Below are positions 391 through 31,892 of a stretch of 59,562 nt of DNA, piece after piece. The translations under genes were made by a program, and so were the position numbers. A model generated the notes under the pieces. It was not told the origin of the DNA. It did not search any database and was given only the letters and a program-made list of their open reading frames with translations. Source of the stretch: Acidimicrobiia bacterium (lineage in GTDB: Bacteria; Actinomycetota; Acidimicrobiia; Spongiisociales; ZC4RG35); the NCBI GenBank assembly GCA_041742825.1, contig JBGTNX010000062.1, positions 1 through 59,562 of the forward strand, in the 5' to 3' direction. The number at the start of each line of letters is the position of its first letter. Position 1 is the first letter of the stretch.

Positions 391-1977
391 ATGTTCATGA
401 GAAAGCGGTCGAAGGGGAGCCAGACCAACGGGCAGTCCGTCCCAACTCCCGAGACCCCTAGCCAGACGCTCGACCCCATCGAGATACCTCCCGGTGACGT
501 CCTGGAGACACTGCTTCTGTCTGCCGGAGGGCCTGTCGAGCTGTCGTCGATCGAAGCCGAGTCGGACGCCATCGATCGGCTCCGCGCGGAAGGTATCGAG
601 TTGGTGGTGCCTTTGATCGGGCAGGGGGAGCTGCTCGGAGCGCTTTATCTGGGCCAGCGACTGTCAGACCAGCCCTATTCGACCGACGATCGTCGTCTAC
701 TCGGAAATCTCGCTGCTCAGGTTGCCCCGGCGATGAAGGTGGCCCAGTTGGTGCGCGAGCAGCAGGCTGAGGCCAAGGAGAGAGAACGCATTCAACAAGA
801 GCTCGAAGTCGCGGCACTGATCCAGCAGACCTTGCTCCCCAAGGAATTGCCTTCGATAAACGGCTGGAACGTGGACGCCTTTTACAGGCCGGCTCGAGCC
901 GTCGGCGGTGATTTCTACGATTTCATCGACCTGGGCAATTCCCGGCTTGGCGTTGTGATCGGGGATGTGACTGACAAAGGTGTTCCGGCGGCCCTCGTGA
1001 TGGCCACTTGCAGAGCGATGTTGCGGGCGGCAGCCTTCAACCACGAGTCGCCTTCGGCGGTGCTGGCTGACGTCAACAATGCGTTGGTGCCCGAGATTCC
1101 CCCGGCAATGTTCGTGACATGTCTCTACGCGATCATCGACACCGATGTCGGCGGGGTGGTATTTGCTAACGCCGGGCACAATCTGCCCTACGTTCGGACC
1201 GCTGATGGGGTAATCGAGCTGCGGGCGACAGGAATGCCGCTCGGGCTGATGCCGGATATGGGCTACGACGACAAGATTTACGAGCTATCTGCCGGTGACA
1301 TCATGGTCCTAACCAGCGACGGAATCACCGAGGCCCACAACCCGGACGGTGAGATGTACGGCTTTTCCCGGGTCATGGGGCGGGTCGCCGCCATTACCAA
1401 GAATGACGACATGGTCAACTCCCTCGTCGGCGATCTGGAGAGGTGGACAGGCACGGAGGCCGAGCAGGAAGACGACATCACTCTCGTGGTGGTGCGCAGG
1501 ACGGCATCTGCCGAGGGTTCGGCTGCGGTTTTCCATACTGATGGAGGAGAGCGGCTGCTCGCCGAGTTCAGCCTTCCCAGCGTCGAAGGGAATGAGCGTC
1601 TGGCCATAGAAAAGGTGTCAGCGGCATTGGCCGGGTTCGGTCTAAACGCGACTCGGCTCGAGCGTCTGAAGACCGCAGTCGGAGAAACGGTAATGAATGC
1701 GATCGAACACGGAAACGACAACGACGACTCACTTGACGTGGGCATTCGAGTAATAGCGGACACCAGTCGGGTTGTGGTGAGGGTCACGGACCACGGGGGG
1801 GACAAGGAGATCCCCGAGGCGGCTACCCCTGACATCGAAGCCAAGCTGGCCGGCGAGCAGACCCCCAGGGGTTGGGGCCTGTTCCTGATTGGCGAGATGG
1901 TGGATGAAGTCAACCGCGTCCGGGAGAACGGCTCTCGTGTCGTCGAGCTGGTTATGAACCGGGAAGGAGAAGCATGA
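391..1977 (+). CDS. SpoIIE/RsbU-type PP2C phosphatase fused to RsbW-type anti-sigma kinase (HATPase_c), with N-terminal GAF-like segment
   Basis: PP2C motifs VGGDFYD, IGDVTDKG, TSDGITEA, QEDDIT; C-terminal AVGETVMNAIEHG, VTDHG, RGWGLFLI; SD GAGGAG upstream. Confidence 0.9.
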   Translation: MFMRKRSKGSQTNGQSVPTPETPSQTLDPIEIPPGDVLETLLLSAGGPVELSSIEAESDAIDRLRAEGIELVVPLIGQGELLGALYLGQRLSDQPYSTDDRRLLGNLAAQVAPAMKVAQLVREQQAEAKERERIQQELEVAALIQQTLLPKELPSINGWNVDAFYRPARAVGGDFYDFIDLGNSRLGVVIGDVTDKGVPAALVMATCRAMLRAAAFNHESPSAVLADVNNALVPEIPPAMFVTCLYAIIDTDVGGVVFANAGHNLPYVRTADGVIELRATGMPLGLMPDMGYDDKIYELSAGDIMVLTSDGITEAHNPDGEMYGFSRVMGRVAAITKNDDMVNSLVGDLERWTGTEAEQEDDITLVVVRRTASAEGSAAVFHTDGGERLLAEFSLPSVEGNERLAIEKVSAALAGFGLNATRLERLKTAVGETVMNAIEHGNDNDDSLDVGIRVIADTSRVVVRVTDHGGDKEIPEAATPDIEAKLAGEQTPRGWGLFLIGEMVDEVNRVRENGSRVVELVMNREGEA

Positions 1978-2312
1978 TGTCGGAAGAAGGACTCGAGACG
2001 ATCGTCCAGGTCAACGGGAATAAAGCCGTCGTCGGATTGAGTGGCACGGTCAATCGTGGCGCCAAGGAGAAGATGGAAGCTGCCTACGTGGAGGCGTCAG
2101 CTGCCCCCGGTGAGATCGTCCTCGACTTTTCGAGAGTCGACTACATCAACTCCACAGGGATTGCGGTGATCGTCGGCGTGCTGGCGATGGCCAGGGCAGA
2201 CGACCGGCAGGTATCCGCCTTCGGTCTCACCGATCACTACCGGGAAGTCTTTGAGATCACCCGTCTCGCCGACTTCATGAACATTCGCGAAGACGCCTCA
2301 ACGGCTGATTGA
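1974..2312 (+). CDS. STAS-domain anti-sigma factor antagonist (RsbV-like)
   Basis: LDFSRVDYINSTGI phospho-Ser motif, EVFEITRL; ATGA overlap with upstream gene. Confidence 0.9.
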   Translation: MMSEEGLETIVQVNGNKAVVGLSGTVNRGAKEKMEAAYVEASAAPGEIVLDFSRVDYINSTGIAVIVGVLAMARADDRQVSAFGLTDHYREVFEITRLADFMNIREDASTAD

Positions 2313-2323
2313 AGGGAGCGACT

Positions 2324-2668
2324 ATGCCTACATCCAACTTGACTATGGACATTCGAGAAGTAGCCGACGGGGTTCGTGTCATCGACGTGCACGGAGAGAT
2401 CACCTCCTTCTCAGATCCACAGATCACCGAAGCCCACAAGAAGGCTGGCGACGGCGCCTCCGCCGTCATTCTCAACTTCGATGATCTCGAATATATGAAC
2501 AGTGGCGGCATCGGGTTGCTGGTCACGACGCTCATCCGAGCGCAAAGGGCAGGTCACGACCTGCGCGCTTACGGTCTCAATGATCATTACCGCCAGATCT
2601 TCACTCTGACCCGTCTCGACGAGGCGATCAGCATCCACGACGACGAGCGCTCGGCCATCGCCGGCTGA
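2324..2668 (+). CDS. Second STAS-domain anti-sigma factor antagonist
   Basis: LNFDDLEYMNSGGIG, QIFTLTRLD; ATG at 2324 after SD GGGAG. Confidence 0.9.
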   Translation: MPTSNLTMDIREVADGVRVIDVHGEITSFSDPQITEAHKKAGDGASAVILNFDDLEYMNSGGIGLLVTTLIRAQRAGHDLRAYGLNDHYRQIFTLTRLDEAISIHDDERSAIAG

Positions 2669-10825: not shown

Positions 10826-11623
10826 TCAATCGTCGAAGAAGGCCTGGAGTTGGGTGCCGAGGAAGTCGATGCCAACGTGATTGGGGTGGCATAGGTCCCG
10901 CCGGAGGTGCTCGGCGGTCAGCGGACCGAGTTCCGGACCGCTTTCCACCAACTCGTAGTTTGCGGCGAGTGTGTCTGCGATGACGGTGCCCTCAGTGGGA
11001 ATCTGGTTACCGTTGGTGACCTCACAATCCTCTCCCTCGTAGAAGTTCAGTGGTGAAACCCACACCGGGATGCCGGGGTCGATCTCCCAGATCTTCGCCA
11101 GCACGGTTTCGGCGTTTTCCAGGGTCAGCCCGGCGGCCGCACGCTCGCAGAGGTTGAGCCAGGCACCGTCGAAGCCGTCTTCGGGTCGAAGCGGAAGGTA
11201 GTGCTCCCCCCAACCATCGCTATTCACCGCCCAGTACTCGACCGTATGGCCTGCCCACGCCGTGTTGACCAACAGGTCGGACCCGGAAACTTCGAGATAA
11301 CCGGACGCGGCATGGTTCGTGTTTGAACAACCGATCACCGAGACCGCATCGAAGGGGTCTGCGGGGAGCGTTGTGGTGGTAGTGGGCTCTGGATCGGGGT
11401 CGGGGACGGAACTCGTCGTGGTGGTAGTCACTTGCGTGGGGGTTGTGGTTGGGGCGTCGGTGCTTGTTGTTGTCGTCGTCTCCGGATTCTCCTCGGGTGA
11501 CTGGCACTGGGGTCGATCCGGTTGCTTGTCACACCTCGGGTCAGCCGCCAGCGCCGGCAAAGCAGTGGCGAGCACTCCCAATAGGGCTGTCGCAAGCAGC
11601 CTCCGCGTCCATGCGGTTGTCAT
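10826..11623 (-). CDS. Secreted protein with Thr-rich linker and SGNH/GDSL-like hydrolase domain
   Basis: Signal peptide (ALA-A), T/P-rich linker, block-I-like VIGCSNT and block-V-like DLCHPN. Confidence 0.6.
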   Translation of the reverse strand: MTTAWTRRLLATALLGVLATALPALAADPRCDKQPDRPQCQSPEENPETTTTTSTDAPTTTPTQVTTTTTSSVPDPDPEPTTTTTLPADPFDAVSVIGCSNTNHAASGYLEVSGSDLLVNTAWAGHTVEYWAVNSDGWGEHYLPLRPEDGFDGAWLNLCERAAAGLTLENAETVLAKIWEIDPGIPVWVSPLNFYEGEDCEVTNGNQIPTEGTVIADTLAANYELVESGPELGPLTAEHLRRDLCHPNHVGIDFLGTQLQAFFDD

Positions 11624-11650
11624 CTGATGTTCCCTTCTCGGCTTGATGAC

Positions 11651-11705
11651 AACATGCCGGAGAAAGGGTCAAGGGCGCTTCAAGGAGAGGTGAAGGTCGT
11701 ATCAA
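11651..11705 (-). promoter_or_regulatory. Four 11-bp-phased direct repeats (TTGA/TTCA) plus -10-like CATGTT
   Basis: Plus-strand tcaa/tgaa at 11669, 11680, 11691, 11702; same architecture as 13070-13126. Confidence 0.65.
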
Positions 11706-11731
11706 CGCGGGCGGCGGGCCGGGCTAGCCGG

Positions 11732-12772
11732 TCAGGTCAGCGGCTTTTTGGCTTCGATCTCGCCGTCAACGATACGCCCGGTGGTTTCGAATCCCCTCTT
11801 GAGGTACATCGGCGCGGGTGACCCTTTGCCCTCCACCCAGCTCACGAAGAGGGTCGAGTCTCCACGAGAGCGCATCTGGGCTTCGACCAGGTCGAGAGCC
11901 TTGCTGCCGATGCCGCGGCGTTGGTGGCGACGGTCGATGAGCAGCCGCCAGAGGAATGGGTCCGGGTGGTGCTCGTTGCTCAAAGCCAACATTACGAAGC
12001 CAACGAGCTCACCATCGGCGCTTATCGCCCGCATCCAGGGAACCAACGGGGCACCCTCGTACACCTCCGGAAAGAGTGCGGCGGCATACGACCAGAGCAT
12101 CGGGGCGACAAAGCTCTCCTGAGACCTGTGAGTCGCCAGTTTGGCGACCTTGTCAGAGGTGTCGGGGGTGATCTCGACAAGTTCGATCTTCTTTGGCGTT
12201 CCCTGCGGGCGGTTCTTCCAGTCCTCCCAATCGGCGCGCAACAGCCCGTAAATCCAGTCGTCAGATACCTCGTCATTGAGCCAGAACGAAGACCGGGTGT
12301 GCCCTTCGAAGAGAAAGCCGTTTCGCTCGAGCACCATTGCCGACGCCGGGTTGTCGGGGTGGAGCATCGCGAAAACCCGGGTGACTCCAAGCTCTTCGAA
12401 GAGATATCCAAGGAAGGCATCGACTGCTTCGGAAGCGTATCCGTTTCCCCAATGCTCACTGGCGAAGGTGTATCCGATTTCCGCAGACCGTCCGTCTTCG
12501 CTCATGTGCAGGGCGAGGTCACCGAGAACTTCCTCATTGGAGCGGTCGCACACGGCTGCCATCCACCACTCGCCGTTTTCAGGGCCACCCATTGCGACGA
12601 TCGAGGCGACAATCGTCTCGGCGCGCTCGACGGGGTAGGGGAGGGCCCAATTCTGGTACTTCGCCACAAGGGGGTCGTTGCGGCGCCGCGCGAGTTCGGC
12701 GGCATCGTCGGGGACAAAGGGACGAATGAGCAGACGTGAGGTATGGATCGGGGTGAACACTGCGTTATTCAA
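11732..12772 (-). CDS. Tandem GNAT N-acetyltransferase (RimJ/RimL domain + second GNAT domain)
   Basis: AEIGYTF..HWGNGYA, NPASAMVLERNGF; second domain LLIDRRHQRRGIG. Confidence 0.85.
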   Translation of the reverse strand: MNNAVFTPIHTSRLLIRPFVPDDAAELARRRNDPLVAKYQNWALPYPVERAETIVASIVAMGGPENGEWWMAAVCDRSNEEVLGDLALHMSEDGRSAEIGYTFASEHWGNGYASEAVDAFLGYLFEELGVTRVFAMLHPDNPASAMVLERNGFLFEGHTRSSFWLNDEVSDDWIYGLLRADWEDWKNRPQGTPKKIELVEITPDTSDKVAKLATHRSQESFVAPMLWSYAAALFPEVYEGAPLVPWMRAISADGELVGFVMLALSNEHHPDPFLWRLLIDRRHQRRGIGSKALDLVEAQMRSRGDSTLFVSWVEGKGSPAPMYLKRGFETTGRIVDGEIEAKKPLT

Positions 12773-12811
12773 CCAATTCGCCGCCCTGAAAGTCGGCTGA
12801 TTTAACGCAGT

Positions 12812-12973
12812 TCAGTCGGAAGGGTGGTCCTCGGGATGTTCCCTGATGTCGCGGGCGTCCTTGCGCTCCTGCTCATGGCGCGCCCCGGACTCTTTGCGTT
12901 CTGTTTCGTAGCGTTCGTTCGACTCGATACGTTCGCGCTCGTGCCGCTCGGCTCTCTCTTGATCTGTTTCCAT
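12812..12973 (-). CDS. 53-aa highly charged small protein with 11-residue repeats (absent from ORF track)
   Basis: Hand translation METDQERAERHERERIESNERYETERKESGARHEQERKDARDIREHPEDHPSD*; fills the gap upstream of the GNAT gene; SD weak. Confidence 0.55.
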   Translation of the reverse strand: METDQERAERHERERIESNERYETERKESGARHEQERKDARDIREHPEDHPSD

Positions 12974-13069
12974 GAACCGGCCTTTGTTTCTGCGACGTCC
13001 TTGAGAATTGCTCCTCCAATCCTACCCGCGATTGGGCCGAAGCTTCCCAAGGCCCCCGACCGGCACTGA

Positions 13070-13126
13070 CCTTGAGGGCAGCTTGATCGTGTGTTGAAGC
13101 GCCCTTGAGTCGATCTGACGCATGGT
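13070..13126 (+). promoter_or_regulatory. Four 11-bp-phased TTGA direct repeats plus -10-like CATGGT (OmpR/PhoB-type operator)
   Basis: TTGA at 13072, 13083, 13094, 13105; 15-mer TTGAAGCGCCCTTGA identical to the minus-strand copy at 11669-11683. Confidence 0.7.
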
Positions 13127-13152
13127 GGTACTCAACCGTGAAAGGAACTGCA

Positions 13153-13428
13153 ATGGCAACTGTTTGGATCGACGCCGATGAATGCATGGGGGCCGGAACC
13201 TGCTCCCAGATCGCCCCACAGGTCTTCGTGGATCGCGGCGACGGAGTTTGGGCGGTGAAAGAGAGCGCTTCCCATTTCGACCGTGAAGTCGTCTTCGACG
13301 GTCTGGATGGGAACGGTCACGGGCCCGATGGCTACGAGGGCCGCGCCCGAATCCCCGATTCGCTGCTTGACCTGGTCATCGAGGCGGCAGAAGAGTGCCC
13401 GGGGGAGTGCATCCATGTCGACGCCTGA
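13153..13428 (+). CDS. Monocluster ferredoxin, probably [3Fe-4S]
   Basis: CMGAGTC...APQVF...ECPGECI; SD AAAGGA. Confidence 0.88.
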   Translation: MATVWIDADECMGAGTCSQIAPQVFVDRGDGVWAVKESASHFDREVVFDGLDGNGHGPDGYEGRARIPDSLLDLVIEAAEECPGECIHVDA

Positions 13429-13978
13429 ACCCAACGCCACTCCGGAGACACCCGGCCCGCGGAGCCCGACAACCCCTCGTACGAAGGCATCCGTGCCGAT
13501 CTCCGTTTTTCTAGGGATCATGGTGGTCCCCCTCGCCGCGGCGGCGTCCATGTTTGTGGTGTCACCACAGATCGAGGAGCCGGCTGCCCTCGCCGCCGAA
13601 CCGGCCAATGCCGAAGTCGTCGCGGCTGGTGCGCCCGACCTGACCCAGGACCTCCTCGTTTCCTGCGGCCCTGTCGCAACCGAGATGATTGCACTCGAGA
13701 AAATCGGCGGCTTGACCACCTTGCAGACGGCCGCCCTTGACGCGCTCCGCCCGATCTGCTCCCAGGAAGGGATGCCCCTACCTGAGGCCACAGATTCACA
13801 GACAGTGCAGGCCGTACTTGTCAGGTCGAATCCGGTCGTGAGCGGTGCTAGCTCCGGGTCGTTGGACGATGACGATCACGATGACGATTGGGACGACTCT
13901 GACGACAGCGACTGGGACGACTCCGACGACAGCGACGGGGACGATTCGCTTGACTCCGACGACTGGGACGATGACTGA
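13415..13978 (+). CDS. Membrane-anchored hypothetical protein with Asp-rich repeat tail
   Basis: One TM (VPISVFLGIMVVPLAAAASMFVV), Cys pair, VVSGASSGS, tail DDDDHDDDWDDSDDSDWDDSDDS...; overlaps both neighbours. Confidence 0.7.
   Translation: MSTPEPNATPETPGPRSPTTPRTKASVPISVFLGIMVVPLAAAASMFVVSPQIEEPAALAAEPANAEVVAAGAPDLTQDLLVSCGPVATEMIALEKIGGLTTLQTAALDALRPICSQEGMPLPEATDSQTVQAVLVRSNPVVSGASSGSLDDDDHDDDWDDSDDSDWDDSDDSDGDDSLDSDDWDDD
13886..13975 (+). repeat. 24-bp coding tandem repeat (DWDDSDDS), about 3.5 copies
   Basis: gattgggacgactctgacgacagc / gactgggacgactccgacgacagc / gacggggacgattcgcttgactcc / gactgggacgatgac. Confidence 0.8.
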
Positions 13979-14274: not shown

Positions 14275-14573
14275 GCCGGTTTGGAGACGCCCGCTGGCAA
14301 CGGTTGGCTGCCTGGAGTGGTGCCGCCCTGGCCTGGGGTTCGACGATCACTGCGGTGGTCCTCGAACCAGCCCGCGTCCCGCCATCGGCCCCGCCTTCGC
14401 AGGCCGAGGTTTCCCCGACGCAGGCGGCGCTTCCCGTCCAACCAGCGTCGGGGCTGCTCGTCATCCGCTATCAACCCGATGAGGTAGAGGCCGTCCAGCC
14501 GACGGCGCTGGCACCGCCACCCGCCGCCCCTGCGGTGGCGGCCGCACCCCAGCCCACAAGCAGCGGCTCATGA
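14271..14573 (+). CDS. Small membrane-anchored Pro/Ala-rich protein ending in TSSGS
   Basis: N-terminal hydrophobic segment, P/A-rich linker, ATGA overlaps on both sides. Confidence 0.65.
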   Translation: MSRFGDARWQRLAAWSGAALAWGSTITAVVLEPARVPPSAPPSQAEVSPTQAALPVQPASGLLVIRYQPDEVEAVQPTALAPPPAAPAVAAAPQPTSSGS

Positions 14574-15421
14574 ACCCAGGAAGCTTCAGGGCGATGGGAA
14601 CGACAGTTGAATCCTGGTTCGACGCGTCCGACAACACCGCAGCAGTTGCCGCGTGGTTCGAGGAGGTGGAGGCTCGGTGTAGCCGGTTCCGGCCCGACAG
14701 CGAACTGTCTCGAATCAATCGCAACCCTTCGCCGGAGATGGGAATGTCGGAGATGATGTGGGAGGTGCTCTCAGCCGCCGATCGGGCGAGAACCCTGACC
14801 GGGGGATTGGTCGACGCAGGGGTCGGGTCTGCGGTAGTCGGTTGGGGCTACGACCGCACGTTCGACGAAGTCGCCGATATCGCATTCGCCAGCGGTCCGT
14901 TCTCGGCCGCCGGGTGGTCGTTGAATCCTGACGAACGGTCGCTACGCCGCTGCGCTGGCACACTTTTGGATCTGGGCGGTATCGCCAAGGGCTGGGCGTG
15001 TGACCGGGCGGTGGAGATGGACTTGGCCCGCGTGGTATCGGCGGGCGGGGATCTTCGCAGCGCCGACCCGGCAACCGTCACCAAAGTGATGGACAACAGC
15101 AACGGCATTGCTGCAAGGGTTCATGTTGGCATTGGCGCACTCGCTAGTTCATCGGTCACCAGACGCCGCTGGCGTGTTGGCGACCGCGAAGTTAGCCACG
15201 TGGTCGACCCCAGGACCATGGAGCCTGTCGAGACCCCTGTCCTGAGCGCCACGGTGGTTGCGGCAACTGCAGTTGAAGCTGAGATCGGCGCTAAAGCCAT
15301 CCTGATCAGTGGCGTAGACGGGCTGTCGTGGGCGGATGCAACGGGGTGGATCCGGTCGGCGCTAATCCAGTGGCACGACGGGTCCGTCTATGCGACAACA
15401 GGCACGGAGCTGGTGGCATGA
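14570..15421 (+). CDS. apbE: FAD:protein FMN transferase (ApbE family), no obvious signal peptide
   Basis: FRAMGT, SRFRPDSELSRIN, DLGGIAKGWACD, SAGGD, HVVDPRT. Confidence 0.92.
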   Translation: MNPGSFRAMGTTVESWFDASDNTAAVAAWFEEVEARCSRFRPDSELSRINRNPSPEMGMSEMMWEVLSAADRARTLTGGLVDAGVGSAVVGWGYDRTFDEVADIAFASGPFSAAGWSLNPDERSLRRCAGTLLDLGGIAKGWACDRAVEMDLARVVSAGGDLRSADPATVTKVMDNSNGIAARVHVGIGALASSSVTRRRWRVGDREVSHVVDPRTMEPVETPVLSATVVAATAVEAEIGAKAILISGVDGLSWADATGWIRSALIQWHDGSVYATTGTELVA

Positions 15422-15984
15422 GCGGCGAATGGCTGGTGATCCGCGGCTCGGGAATCGTTGCGTTCGCCCTACTCAGCGCAGCGGTGATCTGGGGGCTGCT
15501 GGCGTCGACGAAGCTGCTCCAGGCCGTGGTCAAAGCCAAACCTCTCACATGGTTCCATGAGTCGCTGGGAATAGGTGCACTTGCGGCAACCCTCGTTCAT
15601 GTATTTGTGCTCTCCATCCATGACTTTCTCGAGTTCAGCTGGGCAGAGATCCTCGTCCCCGGTCTGTCGGACTGGAAGCGACTCCCGATCGCTCTCGGGG
15701 TGGTGGCCTTTTACGGGCTTGTGGTTGTCTCGATGAGCTTTTACGTGAAGAAGCGCATCGGGCAGCGTGCGTGGCGATCGATCCATTACGGCTCGTTTGG
15801 AGTGTTCGTAGCATCACTGATCCATGGGATTCAGGCCGGTTCAGACTCAGCGCATCCAATGGTCATCGGCATGTATCTCGGCTCCGTCGTCGTGGTCATG
15901 TTGCTGCTGACCCATCGTCTTATTTCTGCGTCGACAGCTTCACCATCGCCGGGTGTTCCATCCCGATCCATGCCTTCGGAATAG
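15418..15984 (+). CDS. Ferric reductase-like transmembrane (MsrQ-like haem b) protein
   Basis: RGSGIVA, His residues in WFHESLG, LVHVF, WRSIHY, LIHGIQAGSD; 5-6 TM; ATGA overlap with apbE. Confidence 0.85.
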   Translation: MSGEWLVIRGSGIVAFALLSAAVIWGLLASTKLLQAVVKAKPLTWFHESLGIGALAATLVHVFVLSIHDFLEFSWAEILVPGLSDWKRLPIALGVVAFYGLVVVSMSFYVKKRIGQRAWRSIHYGSFGVFVASLIHGIQAGSDSAHPMVIGMYLGSVVVVMLLLTHRLISASTASPSPGVPSRSMPSE

Positions 15985-17150: not shown

Positions 17151-17546
17151 ATGGGATTCAATCCGGTCAACCTGACGTTCCGCTTCCTCCTCGAGATCAT
17201 CGGGCTCGTCGGTATCTTTCGGCTCGGGCTCGAGGTCGGAACCGGTGTCTGGCGATGGGTGCTAGCGGTCGGCTTCACCTTTGCGGCAATGACCCTCTGG
17301 GCTACTTTCCGGGTCCCCGGTGATCTAAGCGCCAAGGGTGACGCCCCCTATGCAGTGTCGGGGCAGGTGCGGCTGCTGATCGAGCTGGCAGTGTTCGGGG
17401 CCGGTGCTGTCGCTTGGTTTGTCACCGGCCCGAACTGGATGCGATGGGCCTATTTGGCGGCTCTGGCCCTCCATCACGCAATCTCCTACGACCGGATCGC
17501 CTGGTTGATTCGAGGCGGGACGGAGCCCGTCCCCAACACTAAGTAA
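17151..17546 (+). CDS. YrdB family (DUF2568) membrane protein
   Basis: NLTFRFLLE...LWATFRVPGD...RLLIELAVFG. Confidence 0.75.
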   Translation: MGFNPVNLTFRFLLEIIGLVGIFRLGLEVGTGVWRWVLAVGFTFAAMTLWATFRVPGDLSAKGDAPYAVSGQVRLLIELAVFGAGAVAWFVTGPNWMRWAYLAALALHHAISYDRIAWLIRGGTEPVPNTK

Positions 17547-19275
17547 TCGGCGCCGGCACCGCGGACAGGGGCAGGGACAGCTCGAAAACCGTCCATTGAT
17601 TGGATCTCCGGTACTCGAGGTCGCCGCCCATCAGGCGTGCAAGTTGGCGGGCGACGGCAAGGCCGAGCCCAACGGAGTCGGGTGCCGAACCCTCGCCCTG
17701 AGTCCGATAGTACGGCTCGAAGATCTGCTCGACATCGATGTGGCGCACTCCCAATCCGTTGTCCCGGACGCTGACCAGGGCGTTGCCATTGGCTTCGGCG
17801 ACTTCCACTTCGACGTTGTCTCCCCCGTACCGCGCCGCGTTGGTCAGGAGGTTGCGCAGAATCTGACGGGTGCGAAGCGGGTCGGCATGAGCAGAAATAG
17901 ACGCCCCCTGCACGGAGACTGAGATGCTGAGCCCTGTGGACTGGACGATGTCGAGGCACTCGTCGAGGAGGGAAATGTCAGTTGCCTGGATAGTCAGATT
18001 GCCCGAGGCGGCACGTTCGGAGGTGAGCAGGTCGTCGACCAGATGGGTCAGCTCAATGCTCTGGGCGTAGATGACCGAAGCCATCTCGGTCAGCTCTTCG
18101 GTCGAATAGTCTTCCACGCCGTCGGAAAGAGCTCCCGCAAAACCGACCACGGCGGAGAGCGGGGTGCGCAGCTCGTGGCTCACTGCGGCGATGAACCGGT
18201 CCTTGGCTTTGGCCAACTCCATGAGACCCTCTCGGGCCGCTTCCCTTTCCCAATAAGCGCCAACCATCTCGGCGGCCCGCATCAGACCTTCTACTTCGAT
18301 CCTGGACCATGTCCCTTCCCGGACGTGGTCGGTATAGCCGAGGGATCCCATCCAGCGACCTCCCGTGATGATCGGGGCTACGAGTTCGGCTCTGATTCCC
18401 TCGGACTCATAGCGCTCCCGAATTGGCATCGGAAGGTGAGCGGTGATGATCTCCACAGGCTTGCCGCTGCTCAGTGTCTCGGCAAAACTCTCCATCTGCG
18501 AATAGTCCCCGCTGACGAAGGTCACGTCCCGGTCGGGGTAGTCGGGATGCTGTGCTTCGGAGACGATCTCCCATCGGAGTGTGCCCCTCTGATCGACCCG
18601 GTTGACGTCGATGTATGCGTAGTAGGCCTCAGTTGCATCGAGCAATGCCAATAAGGCGGTATGCAGCGGGTCTTTGGTACCCCGGGTGAGCAACGCCTGG
18701 GAGCATTCGGCGAGGGCCTTTTGGATCCGCGCATGCTTTCGGGCGGTGATCGTTGCAGACGCGAGCGACCCGAACATGCGATGGACCACCCAGATGACTA
18801 CTCCCTGGCCCAGAGTTCCCACCAGGACGAAGCCGACGAGATTGGTGCCGGGGAATTCTGAATATGTGACGCTCAACAGTGCGAAGGCAGCAATCCCCCC
18901 GATCCAGATCTGAACGGGATGCGACGATCTGTTGTCGGTCATACCGATGTAGGTGATGGCGACGAGCACCAGAACCGTGAGGGTTGTCCCCGGGGTGGTC
19001 AAAGAGACCTGTCCGGAGGTGATTGCATCGGACAGCGACAGCACCGCGAACACCAGCCCGATGTAGATCGGGAGAAGCTGGATCTGGGAGAGCCTTCTGA
19101 GCAGAAACGTCGCCATGACTGCGATCGAGAGATATCCCGCGGACCGGATCATGGCCTCGCGTGAAGCCTCGTTGAGCCAAAGGTCGAGGGCCATGGCAAC
19201 CGGGGTGACCAGGATGCAGCTGATGAGGCCAGCGCGGCCGACTTGCTGCCGGTCACCGGCAGGGGCGATATCCAT
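17539..19275 (-). CDS. Membrane sensor histidine kinase with GAF domain (orphan)
   Basis: About 6 TM, GAF-like region, H-box VSHELRTPL, N-box NLLTNAARYG, DNGLG, GLGL. Confidence 0.9.
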   Translation of the reverse strand: MDIAPAGDRQQVGRAGLISCILVTPVAMALDLWLNEASREAMIRSAGYLSIAVMATFLLRRLSQIQLLPIYIGLVFAVLSLSDAITSGQVSLTTPGTTLTVLVLVAITYIGMTDNRSSHPVQIWIGGIAAFALLSVTYSEFPGTNLVGFVLVGTLGQGVVIWVVHRMFGSLASATITARKHARIQKALAECSQALLTRGTKDPLHTALLALLDATEAYYAYIDVNRVDQRGTLRWEIVSEAQHPDYPDRDVTFVSGDYSQMESFAETLSSGKPVEIITAHLPMPIRERYESEGIRAELVAPIITGGRWMGSLGYTDHVREGTWSRIEVEGLMRAAEMVGAYWEREAAREGLMELAKAKDRFIAAVSHELRTPLSAVVGFAGALSDGVEDYSTEELTEMASVIYAQSIELTHLVDDLLTSERAASGNLTIQATDISLLDECLDIVQSTGLSISVSVQGASISAHADPLRTRQILRNLLTNAARYGGDNVEVEVAEANGNALVSVRDNGLGVRHIDVEQIFEPYYRTQGEGSAPDSVGLGLAVARQLARLMGGDLEYRRSNQWTVFELSLPLSAVPAPIT

Positions 19276-28943: not shown

Positions 28944-29981
28944 CTAGAGGGTGGCGAGAGCGACGTTCGTGATGGTTCGACCGTAGGCCGCCCGCAGCTC
29001 GCACTTCTGCTCCAGGGCCGTGAGCACCGCGTCGGCGAAGTTGACCTCGGCGTAATGCCCCGCGCTTCCCAGCCCTCCGGGGCTGAAGACGTTGACTTCC
29101 ATCAGCTTGTCTCCGACGATGTCGAGGCCAACGAGGAACATGCCGTCCTTGATCAGTTTGGGTTTGACGATATTCACCAGTCGCAGCATTTCGTCAGTCA
29201 CCTTGACAGCAACGGCCTCGCCCCCGGCGTGCATGTTCGAGCGGACATCGGAACTCGCGTTGACCCGGCGGAACGCAGCGTATTTGCCTTCGTGCTCCAG
29301 GGCCTCTCCATTCATCACAAACATCCGGACGTCGCCCTCTTCGGCAGACTCCAGATATTCCTGAGCAACCACGTATCCGTCCCGGCTTATGGTCTCGATG
29401 ATCTGGTTCACGTTTGCCTCGCCGTCACCTCCGACGAGGAATACACCCTGGCCGCCCGAACCTTGCAGCGGCTTCAGAACGGCACGGTTGCCGCAGTCGG
29501 CGATGAATTCCTTGATGTCCTCGGCGTTGCGCGAGATGAGGGTCTTCGGCCGCACCTCCTCGGGGAAGTGCTGGAAATAGGCCTTGTTGATCGCGTCGGC
29601 GAGGTGGACCGGGTCATTGACAACGATCACTCCATTAGCCGCGGCAATCTGGCCGAAGAGGACTCCTGACGTTTGTGCCCAGGGCCGATCGATTGCATCT
29701 GACGCCGGGTCGTTGCGGAGCATCAACACATCGAGGTCGTCGACGACGATTGGCTCCGATCCGTCCTGCACGTCGCCCAGGTAGGTCTCGAGCGACCTGT
29801 AGGTCTTGGCCTGCGGAGCAGACGCCATTGCGACGACCCGCCCTTCCGGATCCTGTCCCAGATCCCCGACACCCATCACCCAGGTCTCGTGATCGTGGTT
29901 TGTCGCGGCCATGGCAAGCCGGGTTGTCGAATATCCGGCTTCTTCGGTGCTGACGTTGTTGACGACAAATCCAATTTTCAT
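28944..29981 (-). CDS. gshB: Glutathione synthetase-like ATP-grasp ligase
   Basis: DVLMLRNDP, VVNDP, KPLQGSGGQGVF, GDVR, RSNMHAGG, GLDIVGDKLMEVNVFSPGG; substrate not certain. Confidence 0.75.
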   Translation of the reverse strand: MKIGFVVNNVSTEEAGYSTTRLAMAATNHDHETWVMGVGDLGQDPEGRVVAMASAPQAKTYRSLETYLGDVQDGSEPIVVDDLDVLMLRNDPASDAIDRPWAQTSGVLFGQIAAANGVIVVNDPVHLADAINKAYFQHFPEEVRPKTLISRNAEDIKEFIADCGNRAVLKPLQGSGGQGVFLVGGDGEANVNQIIETISRDGYVVAQEYLESAEEGDVRMFVMNGEALEHEGKYAAFRRVNASSDVRSNMHAGGEAVAVKVTDEMLRLVNIVKPKLIKDGMFLVGLDIVGDKLMEVNVFSPGGLGSAGHYAEVNFADAVLTALEQKCELRAAYGRTITNVALATL

Positions 29982-31135
29982 GCTGCAAGCTCTCCTAGCT
30001 CGAGTACGTCCAAACCTTGTTGCACCTTTTTCATCCTCTGTCGTGCCTCGGGGTCCACCAGATATCGCGGGACCAGCGGAGGCGTCGTGAGTATGGACCG
30101 ATCGAGGAGCTCGCGCACCAACGGGAGTGCTTCGAATGAGACCTTGCCGACCAACAGCGGAGTCATATCGAGCTCATCCATCTTCTCGATGAGAGCGAGC
30201 AATCGGATCAACCCTCGCAGGTAGACGGCGTCCTTCGTGATCCCACCTGAGCGGTAGGTCCTCATCACCGTGGTGAACGCGACCCGCTTCGAGCAGCCGA
30301 GGCCGGCCAGGTGCCCGTAGGCTTCACGGAAGGTGGCGTTTTGCCCGCGGAGATGGGCAGTTATCACCCGGTAGGCGAGCACACGCAGACGCGAAGCGGG
30401 CAAGCCGCCACCTGCCAGATACTCGGCGAGGACCCCGAGGGCTTCCTGCAACTCGTCGTAGCGGGCCAGGCCCACTGAGAGCATGTGCAACGGCTGGGAG
30501 CGACCGTTCTCGAAAGTGACAATGTGGGTTCCGACTTCGTGCTGGAGCAACGGGTACACCCGCGCCCGGATCACTTTGATATCACTTGCGATGAAGAGAT
30601 GGCCGGCCTCGACCATTACCCCGGTGGTTGTCGAGCTCACGTTCACGGTCGCCGCAAGCTCCGGGAACTGCTCCTGGTAGTAGTCGAGCTCCTTCAGGGC
30701 CTCAGCGGCCAACTGAGTGGCTCCAATCCTCCCACCGGTCGTCTTGGTTTCGGGCACCCGCTCCACGATTCGATTGGCCGCTTCCAAAGTCTCATCCTCG
30801 ACATGTCCGAACATCTCGATAGAGCTGAGAAAGAAGTCGGGTGAGTTTCTCCTCGAGAGCATTTCGACCTTCAACTTCAGCTCGTGGATCAATCCCTCGG
30901 CCATATGGGCGATTGTGGGGTCGGTCGCCTGCTCCGAGCTCAGCCCATCCAACTCATGACTGATTTGCTCGAGATCGGGGAGGGCGCGGTAGGAAAAGAT
31001 CGGCTCCTCTCCGGCGAGGAACACCGCCCTGGCCTCAGTTACGTTGGTCGGGGTGACCAGTCGGAGCAGGGGCAATCGCCCGGAGAGTTCCGACAACTTG
31101 TGGTCGAGAGTGAGATCAGCCTCACTTACTGACAT
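29978..31135 (-). CDS. DUF1704 (QEGLA-motif) zinc metallopeptidase
   Basis: HEVGTH (HExxxH), ENGRSQPL, ELQEALGVLAEY, RSGGITKDAVYLRGL. Confidence 0.85.
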   Translation of the reverse strand: MSVSEADLTLDHKLSELSGRLPLLRLVTPTNVTEARAVFLAGEEPIFSYRALPDLEQISHELDGLSSEQATDPTIAHMAEGLIHELKLKVEMLSRRNSPDFFLSSIEMFGHVEDETLEAANRIVERVPETKTTGGRIGATQLAAEALKELDYYQEQFPELAATVNVSSTTTGVMVEAGHLFIASDIKVIRARVYPLLQHEVGTHIVTFENGRSQPLHMLSVGLARYDELQEALGVLAEYLAGGGLPASRLRVLAYRVITAHLRGQNATFREAYGHLAGLGCSKRVAFTTVMRTYRSGGITKDAVYLRGLIRLLALIEKMDELDMTPLLVGKVSFEALPLVRELLDRSILTTPPLVPRYLVDPEARQRMKKVQQGLDVLELGELAA

Positions 31136-31892
31136 TGGCACGCCAGTTGGCGAGAACGGGATTGACCGAAGCTTCGAGGAATGCACCGAGCCTATCGAAC
31201 TCCTCAGTGAAGACCTCGTCGCTCCACTCGTCCATGAAGGTCTTCTTGAACTCGATGGCAAGGGCGCACCCAACATCCCCGAACTGCTCATGGACCCAGG
31301 CGGCAACCTGTCTGCCTTCGAACTTCACATTCTCACGCGCATCGAAGCCGGCCCCGTGGGCAGTCGCCAGAAACACTTCGGCGACTGACTTCCATTTCGG
31401 GGGGAGTGAACCTGTGCCCAGATTCAAGTCTGGGTTCTCCTCCTGGGGCGCGGGCGCGGCGGAGGCTCCATCGCGACGGTGGTTGTAGGAATGAATGTCG
31501 TAGAGGACGAAACCACCGTGACGGAGCACCAGGCTATCGAGGAGCTCACCAAGTTCCGTGTAGAAATCGTCGTAGAGCTCGATTGACTCGCCGATGGTTT
31601 CAGGCCCTGGTTCTGTGTTCCAAAGCTGGAGGCCCCAGGCGTCGTCGGGCCTGACATATACAGCCTCCTCGGGCGGACGGTTCAAGTCCACTTCGAACCG
31701 CGACCTCTGAACCACGATCGAACTCGGCAGACGTGTCGCTAGGACGCCGGTGTAGGGGTCTTCCTCGCGGAACCTTGTCGCCTCGTCGAGGACCATGTTT
31801 GCCGCCACTTCAGGACGCAGCTCATGGCCGTTGTGAACGGCGACGCCGACGACGGGTATATCCAGATTGGTTTTGCGGGTTGCGAAGGGCAC
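31122..31892 (-). CDS. N-formylglutamate amidohydrolase family protein
   Basis: AVHNGH, EEDPYT, SRFEVDLNR, DIHSYN, NLGTG, AIEFKK. Confidence 0.88.
   Translation of the reverse strand: MPFATRKTNLDIPVVGVAVHNGHELRPEVAANMVLDEATRFREEDPYTGVLATRLPSSIVVQRSRFEVDLNRPPEEAVYVRPDDAWGLQLWNTEPGPETIGESIELYDDFYTELGELLDSLVLRHGGFVLYDIHSYNHRRDGASAAPAPQEENPDLNLGTGSLPPKWKSVAEVFLATAHGAGFDARENVKFEGRQVAAWVHEQFGDVGCALAIEFKKTFMDEWSDEVFTEEFDRLGAFLEASVNPVLANWRANVSK

Follow-up and report, generated by a model that had tools for sequence, protein, structure and literature searches.

The stretch analysed here, called the window below, comprises 59,562 nucleotides from an Acidimicrobiia bacterium (GenBank assembly GCA_041742825.1, contig JBGTNX010000062.1), whose genome, G000, amounts to 2.38 Mb in 126 contigs. 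Two of its transcription units, an operon running from a ferredoxin gene to genes for ApbE-family and MsrQ-like proteins and a minus-strand gene for a secreted SGNH-like protein, are each preceded by an array of four short boxes with the core TTGA, repeated at a phase of 11 bp (Table 1). A first-pass annotation of the window, made from its sequence alone, had proposed that both arrays are bound by one OmpR/PhoB-family response regulator (RR) encoded elsewhere. Here we describe the two arrays, their conservation and the most likely regulator of the promoters that carry them.

Two phased arrays and their promoters

Reading of the sequence together with a pattern search confirmed the box coordinates on both strands, and the repeats are direct, not inverted. 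The 15-mer said to be common to the two promoters is indeed identical at 13094-13108 (+) and 11669-11683 (-). In both promoters box 4 is separated from a downstream hexamer by exactly 12 nt, and the ATG begins 45 nt past the final base of box 4 at the ferredoxin gene (13108 to 13153) and 46 nt past it at the SGNH-like gene (11669 to 11623), all exactly as annotated.

The four-box pattern with at most one mismatch was found in 0 of 100 dinucleotide shuffles of the window, and the composition-based expectation for the whole genome on both strands is 9.5e-5 exact matches and 5.8e-3 matches with at most one mismatch. The genome-wide scan that the annotation had called for returned, over all 126 contigs and at the latter threshold, the window's two arrays only. 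Scored with a 59-nt position weight matrix (PWM), the ferredoxin-operon array reached 69.2 bits and the SGNH-gene array 62.1 bits, compared with 13.0 bits for the best background anywhere in G000. The 15-mer alone is weaker, as one of 100 shuffles gave two matches at no more than two mismatches. The window arrays are far beyond chance, which is excluded as their origin. One further four-box match, with two mismatches, lies at C75:41960-41996 (-) in AT-rich sequence with repeated TGTGACA words and looks like an unrelated, different element.

The downstream CATG(G/T)T element kept its exact spacing but is best viewed as a -10 hexamer with only two invariant positions, A(-11) and T(-7). Across 17 aligned sites from orthologous loci, positions 2 and 6 (A and T) were the same in all 17, and the first base was mostly C or G (C/G-A-n-n-n-T), the first T being absent from most sites; the invariant A and T would fit -11 and -7 of a weak -10. 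With the hexamer taken as -12 to -7, the arrays span about -61 to -25 and the boxes start at about -61, -50, -39 and -28. A generic scan of 11550-13250 found no sigma-70-type promoter (-35/-10 pair), no -35-like hexamer lies 16-18 bp from the -10, and boxes 3 and 4, with spacers of 21 and 10 nt respectively, are both unfit as a -35. The -10 assignment is independently supported because, at the regulator-adjacent sites described below, a hexamer of the same type is found 6-7 nt before the start codon of the divergent gene in several genera, as would be expected if actinobacterial transcripts of the leaderless kind start there. Upstream of the ferredoxin gene a Shine-Dalgarno-like GAAAGGAA is present at 13140-13147. 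The geometry is that of an OmpR/PhoB-type class II array: four direct repeats of about 11 bp, one helical turn apart, with the end of the proximal repeat about 10 bp upstream of a weak -10 and no -35. The annotation had likewise read the 11-bp direct repeats as the signature of OmpR/PhoB-family activators.

Table 1. Features of the window and of the candidate regulator locus on C65 (E, E value; TSS, transcription start site; ORF, open reading frame; HK, partner kinase; DIV, divergent gene)
Feature	Coordinates	Strand	Remarks
Ferredoxin-operon array, four TTGA boxes at 11-bp phase	13072..13108 (box starts 13072, 13083, 13094, 13105)	+	0 mismatches
SGNH-gene array, TTGA/TTCA/TTGA/TTGA at 11-bp phase	11669..11705 (lowest coordinates 11702, 11691, 11680, 11669)	-	1 mismatch in 16 box positions
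Weak -10 hexamer CATGGT	13121..13126	+	12 nt after box 4; predicted TSS ~13133
Weak -10 hexamer CATGTT	11651..11656	-	12 nt after box 4; predicted TSS ~11644
Ferredoxin, 91 aa, single-cluster Fer4_15, first operon gene	13153..13428	+	Pfam PF13459, E 4.9e-14
Membrane-anchored protein, two invariant Cys, long Asp-rich C-terminal tail	13445..13978	+	no Pfam/NCBIfam family; start codon uncertain
Small membrane protein, 98 aa	13978..14274	+	no family; start overlaps preceding stop
Small Pro/Ala-rich protein, 100 aa	14271..14573	+	no family; 4-nt overlaps on both sides
ApbE-family FAD:protein FMN transferase	14570..15421	+	Pfam PF02424, E 1.2e-39
MsrQ-like / ferric-reductase-type transmembrane di-haem protein, last overlapping gene	15418..15984	+	PF01794, E 2.5e-7; start uncertain, ORF opens at 15328
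Secreted protein, 265 aa: signal peptide, Thr/Pro-rich linker, C-terminal SGNH/GDSL-fold domain (predicted)	10826..11623	-	alignment, AlphaFold (AF2) model, Foldseek
Two-domain GNAT gene between both promoters	11732-12772	-	
OmpR-family response regulator (RR)	C65:30971-31642	-	receiver and Trans_reg_C domains; PF00486, 83.7 bits
Partner kinase (HK)	C65:29670-30971		follows RR
Divergent, leaderless target gene (DIV; putative)	C65:31745-32239		array upstream
RR/DIV intergenic array	C65:31683-31723		degenerate fourth box

Conservation of the arrays and extent of the regulon

The arrays were followed into 41 related genomes (G numbers other than G000), which share kinship, so that counts across them are not independent. 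Orthologues of the SGNH-like protein (62-84% identity) occur in six of the 41, and five of the six loci carry the array directly upstream, in the same register and with at most 3 mismatches in 16 positions; the sixth, in G005, scored 27.7 bits with the 59-nt matrix built from other sites. Ferredoxin orthologues (67-90% identity) were found in nine genomes, with the array at no more than 3 mismatches in 7/9, and the G008 locus, at 25.0 bits, brings those above background to 8/9. The ninth, in G024, is weak (9.2 bits, not above background), with three phased boxes visible by eye. The motif thus stands before orthologues of both units, as the first pass had anticipated. In the resulting 17-site alignment the TT of every box is invariant (17/17) and the spacers vary freely. 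Taken together, the arrays are real, conserved cis-elements.

The two units are unlinked yet array-bearing in G011, where they lie 0.85 Mb apart, and in G008, where they are on separate contigs. In G011, G012 and G008 the ferredoxin operon is located behind the phosphoenolpyruvate (PEP) carboxylase gene ppc instead of the GNAT gene; the genes of about 900 aa found upstream of the ferredoxin array in these three genomes had been considered as regulators and were rejected, as they encode PEP carboxylase. Arrays that travel with their genes into unlinked loci favour a trans-acting factor and disfavour local duplication.

To extend the regulon, a profile (R1), built from the 17 ferredoxin and SGNH sites only, was run over 41 genomes. 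Beyond the training sites, R1 matches with four well-formed boxes, of 17.8-31.1 bits, were found in seven genomes (G001, G003, G004, G006, G008, G009 with two copies, and G011) before the gene for a secreted Ser/Thr/Asp-rich protein of about 190-203 aa, designated T3; in G001, G003 and G006 the T3 array is present and both window units are missing. Other R1 matches precede a 632-aa protein with five cupredoxin domains in G011 and, in G017, a CLC channel and a 291-aa protein with two T3-like domains. In G000 itself T3 is encoded at C15:24-632, and the contig starts two bases past the expected end of box 4, so that the array is lost in an assembly gap. The assembly break in the T3 promoter (C67:1-140, C15:1-45) is accompanied by several short CTCCCTCCGCTTGC-like repeat copies at the C67 end, and this repeat probably caused the break.

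A four-box PWM from all site classes gave exactly three matches above 11 bits in G000, namely the two window sites (40.0 and 33.1 bits) and an array on C65 (27.2 bits, from a matrix that included the C65 array itself). The annotation had described a regulon of two units; both belong to it, but it is larger. The distribution of sites supports a predicted regulon of at least four units in this genus, comprising a divergent membrane-anchored beta-domain protein, its secreted paralogue T3, the ferredoxin-ApbE-MsrQ-like operon and the SGNH-fold protein.

A candidate regulator and competing explanations

That the regulator is not encoded in the window agrees with the Pfam searches, which returned no response regulator in about 1-36600 and no Trans_reg_C match on the window contig. 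The clue to its identity was an R1 match in G011, situated 41 bp from and divergent to the gene of an OmpR-family RR, whose orthologue in G000 (74-75% identical) is encoded on C65 next to its partner kinase. Orthologues of this RR are present in 29 of 40 relatives, and R1 matches lie near them in G011 (41 bp), G030 (42 bp), G017 (2.2 kb), G018 (2.2 kb) and G024 (1.9 kb). Such adjacency within 3 kb, seen in five genera, was observed 5 times against 0.11 expected; the corresponding Poisson probability of 1.3e-7 overstates the case, since related genomes are not independent.

The region upstream of the RR gene was also scored by box count, taking three phased boxes (12 positions) in 200 nt. Of 30 loci, 13 matched in at least 10 of 12 positions, every time on the strand that the divergent gene uses, and within the family 12 of 19 loci did so; at most 1% of shuffles reach this score. 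The unpublished genome G027 is among the 17 misses, and neither it nor G038 underlies any positive claim. Among the other response regulators of G000 the comparison is with the C80 type, which served as control and reached this score in 1 of 12 loci. The product of the divergent gene is membrane-anchored, carries a Ser/Thr-rich linker and ends in a domain of about 65 aa that is homologous to the C-terminus of T3. NCBIfam searches with these two beta-domain proteins gave no match, Pfam gave only a sub-cut-off CCB1 hit for T3, and a protein atlas search returned unnamed Actinomycetota clusters only. Co-absence fits as well: G010, G015 and G022 have neither RR nor DIV and no array match better than E of about 0.2, and G013 is without RR and without array match.

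On comparative evidence we consider it fairly probable that the C65 RR-HK pair, the most likely regulator of both window promoters, acts there as a tandem-dimer activator. Two head-to-tail dimers of the phosphorylated OmpR/PhoB-family RR would occupy the four boxes, the promoter-proximal dimer would replace the contact between -35 and sigma region 4 and recruit RNA polymerase, and the same RR would also act at the DIV promoter through the intergenic array. The cargo of the regulon suggests an extracytoplasmic redox or metal cue as the signal.

The window also holds an orphan GAF-HisKA-HATPase kinase (17539-19275, -) with no regulator adjoining. In relatives it stays among genes of the predicted regulon: G004, G009 and G005 have it in the vicinity of the ferredoxin operon, and G008 has it immediately next to the SGNH-like gene. 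It could feed a second input into that regulator.

Besides the inflated Poisson figure and the inclusion of the C65 array in the matrix that scored it, several observations weigh against the assignment to the C65 RR. Three of the 17 R1 sites (G008, G005 and G024) are weak and were picked by position. The RR-adjacent arrays have a degenerate fourth box, and that of G000 reaches 8/12 by simple count, a value attained by 53% of shuffles. RR and DIV were not found in G003 (82% complete) and G019 (92% complete), both of which carry strong arrays. The C80-type RR has CTGAC-N6-CTGAC upstream of its own gene, which allows for possible cross-recognition. Finally, the specificity of the C65 RR cannot be read from its family, as it falls below every curated NCBIfam equivalog cut-off (bits scored/cut-off: PhoB 170.4/296.2; MtrA 171.6/300; CseB 178.9/350). 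With 146.7 bits against a cut-off of 279.2 it is not a member of the heavy-metal subfamily cztR_silR_copR (TIGR01387), and the regulon does not qualify as a Pho regulon, as the PhoB cut-off is missed and the pst and pho genes of G000 have no site above 11 bits before them.

The strongest competitor is that another OmpR-family RR of G000 (C69, C80, the RegX3-like C82, C31 or the GlnR-like C108) binds the arrays, the adjacency at C65 then marking a shared target instead of autoregulation. There are seven Trans_reg_C proteins in G000 to choose from, the CTGAC-N6-CTGAC repeats before the C80-type gene resemble box 3, and the arrays of G003 and G019 occur without a detectable C65-type RR. However, G004 (95% complete) and G009, which have the strongest arrays, yielded no orthologue of either C69 or C80, and G005 (100% complete) and G011 likewise yielded none of C80; by phyletic profiling neither tracks the arrays, and both were set aside. 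The absence of any other G000 site above 11 bits makes a global regulator with many targets, such as one for phosphate or nitrogen, unlikely. The C108, C82 and C31 RRs, whose sequences resemble the GlnR, RegX3 and PhoP/MtrA types, are disfavoured as global regulators because the whole genome has only three sites. Overall we regard control by another RR as unlikely. The C80 gene (C80:13343-14020) and its orthologous loci L067-L078 encode a CopR/CusR-like RR, as judged by eye, with CTGAC-N6-CTGAC repeats upstream in several genomes; these repeats are probably the operator of the C80-type RR itself, distinct from the TTGA array.

Repression is a quite improbable alternative, in which the array, lying across the RNA polymerase binding region, would keep the enzyme off, and the promoters would be active when the regulator is absent. 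OmpR-family regulators can act either way, and a repression complex of M. tuberculosis PhoP figures in the portion of PMC11825685 available to us. At the window promoters, though, the lack of a -35-like hexamer at 16-18 bp and the poor -10 mean that unaided initiation should be poor, and the array ends upstream of the -10 with a spacing typical of activation.

Binding by a SARP-type regulator (OmpR-like winged helix plus BTAD), for instance the SARP-kinase protein of C39, seems very unlikely to us. SARPs also use direct repeats spaced by 11 bp near the -35, and their heptameric direct repeats are the subject of PMC5930380 and PMC10936776, as the parts of both papers at hand indicate. A SARP-like N-terminus is present on the C39 protein and paralogues are common in the group, but a close orthologue was found in only two of 24 relatives searched, G004 (94%) and G015 (72%). 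The other array-bearing genomes contain only paralogues of 44-51%, array-bearing G003 has no match at E of at most 1e-20, and no co-localisation with arrays was seen. The distribution of the only SARP-like protein found in G000 therefore does not follow the repeats, and the two promoters do not group with SARP-controlled ones. The C39 protein itself (C39:4258-9771, +) has 1837 aa, with an apparent Ser/Thr kinase motif after the SARP-like N-terminus, and relatives have many paralogues of 1000-1900 aa.

Recent local duplication or gene conversion between the promoters, which are 1.4 kb apart, would explain, without a shared trans-factor, why adjacent intergenic regions have the same 15-mer, but it is scarcely credible: the promoters differ outside the boxes, the 15-mers of G004 differ from each other while the boxes persist, and arrays persist at the unlinked units of G011 and G008 and before unrelated genes.

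Returning to the C65 RR, a scan of species representatives showed that its closest relatives are in Acidimicrobiia metagenome-assembled genomes and that RRs of 55-65% identity occur in Geodermatophilus, Micromonospora, Cellulomonas and Aeromicrobium. At least 11 of 12 box positions matched on the divergent strand in 19 of 59 loci, some of which may duplicate the G genomes. The DIV beta-domain gene is kept in Geodermatophilus, Cellulomonas and Micromonospora, and phased TTGx/TTAx boxes are kept in Geodermatophilus and, in more degenerate form, in Cellulomonas; this does not hold for the Aeromicrobium locus. Further Acidimicrobiia metagenome-assembled genomes likewise have the same set of genes and phased boxes. 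We put forward, tentatively, that RR, HK and DIV may together be a sensory module of three genes that has an 11-bp-phased TTGA-type operator to itself and is shared by hot-spring Acidimicrobiia and cultured members of Geodermatophilus, Cellulomonas and Micromonospora. In this genus the module would have recruited the ferredoxin-ApbE-MsrQ-like operon, for extracytoplasmic electron transfer, and the secreted SGNH hydrolase, and in relatives the five-domain cupredoxin; it would then serve specifically to sense a redox or metal condition of the envelope.

With the candidate assignment, a two-component system without described function acquires an operator sequence, a promoter architecture and its first regulon. 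As this RR-HK system is widespread in Actinomycetota, culturable genera included, the assignment is testable, and it offers a first regulatory handle on the ApbE/MsrQ-like transmembrane electron-transfer cluster typical of Actinobacteria. The mechanism being standard, what is gained is annotation and testability rather than a new principle.

Genes at the arrays and comparison with known systems

The product of the SGNH-like gene has no match in Pfam or NCBIfam. In an alignment of 14 sequences G98-C99-S100 (block I Ser) and D243/H246 (block V D-x-x-H) are invariant, and in the AF2 model pLDDT exceeds 90 across most of the domain. The top Foldseek matches, all with weak scores, are nearly all esterases of the GDSL/SGNH type plus one designed protein; the best is 2hsj (E 1e-3, TM 0.48/0.58), and TesA and Axe2 are also among them. 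As sequence models miss it, we place the protein among the SGNH/GDSL hydrolases at the level of fold only.

In the ferredoxin operon, the product of 13445-13978 ends in about 45 residues that, apart from some Trp and Ser, are nearly all Asp. All six orthologues retain an acidic tail, in one of them rich in Glu/His, as well as two invariant Cys, and the protein may serve the ApbE/MsrQ-like module as a cation-binding or redox partner. An SGAS sequence ([S/T]GA[S/T]-like) in the same product was considered as a flavinylation target of ApbE and discarded, as it is not conserved in the six orthologues. The gap between the GNAT gene and the ferredoxin-operon array is filled by small overlapping putative ORFs at 12824-13069 (+) and 12802-13050 (-); the first is 70% identical to a counterpart in G009 whose end lies close to the array.

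Farther away, the window encodes at 391-2668 (+) a partner-switching set, in which a GAF-SpoIIE phosphatase with a kinase-like ATPase domain is followed by two STAS proteins. At 29978-31306 (-) it encodes a protein of 442 aa that matches the MATCAP (microtubule-associated tyrosine carboxypeptidase) family (E 3.5e-62), an unexpected family name for a bacterium.

A full-text literature search, with most subscription journals outside its coverage, found no paper on this motif, on this regulator or on regulation in Acidimicrobiia. Judged from sequence, the proposed mechanism is of a known kind; the motif, the putative regulator-operator assignment and the predicted regulon are new.

The closest described relative of the operon is the MsrQ-like flavinylation cluster, which according to excerpts of PMC8238504 pairs ApbE with a PF01794 membrane protein, is broadly conserved in Actinobacteria and is proposed to move electrons across the membrane. 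The window operon has the same pairing but, set against the clusters in those excerpts, is headed by a ferredoxin instead, and a Pfam search found neither an FMN-binding domain gene nor an NAD-binding domain in it. Regulation is not dealt with in those excerpts.

In layout the closest analogue is CopRS of C. glutamicum. The text of PMC3353115 accessible to us describes an OmpR-type RR-HK operon that is divergent from its main target, with a tandem repeat of 11-bp period between them, and counts a copper oxidase and functionally uncharacterised secreted proteins among the targets. The divergent arrangement around an 11-bp-period repeat recurs at C65, and the CopRS repeat core, TGAAGATTT as printed in PMC3353115, shares TGAAG with box 3 here. 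The copper oxidase among the CopRS targets is paralleled by the protein with five cupredoxin domains that is a predicted target in the relative G011. In contrast, CopR has one dimer site in that account, whereas three to four boxes are found here; the G000 regulon contains no copper exporter or oxidase, and the candidate RR misses the heavy-metal cut-off. A copper link of the regulon is speculation.

The occupancy proposed for the four boxes has its precedent in the M. tuberculosis PhoP and GlnR complexes, in which, by the sections of PMC11825685 that we could consult, tandem head-to-tail dimers (tetramers on four sites) replace the contact of -35 and sigma region 4. The likeness extends to direct repeats one helical turn apart, to four half-sites and to the position of the downstream ones over the -35 region. 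The boxes here differ from those of PhoP and GlnR, as given in the same sections, in sequence (core TTGA, third unit TTGAAGCG); the candidate RR lies below all curated equivalog cut-offs, and the regulon, with three visible sites in 2.38 Mb, is tiny instead of global.

A variable number of boxes also has a parallel, as operators of the OmpR-family regulator ArcA of E. coli have variable numbers of direct repeats, three of them at icdA, in the portions of PMC3798270 and PMC4173790 at our disposal. ArcA is mainly a repressor of a global regulon, whereas the array architecture and weak promoters described here point to a regulator that would activate a handful of genes.

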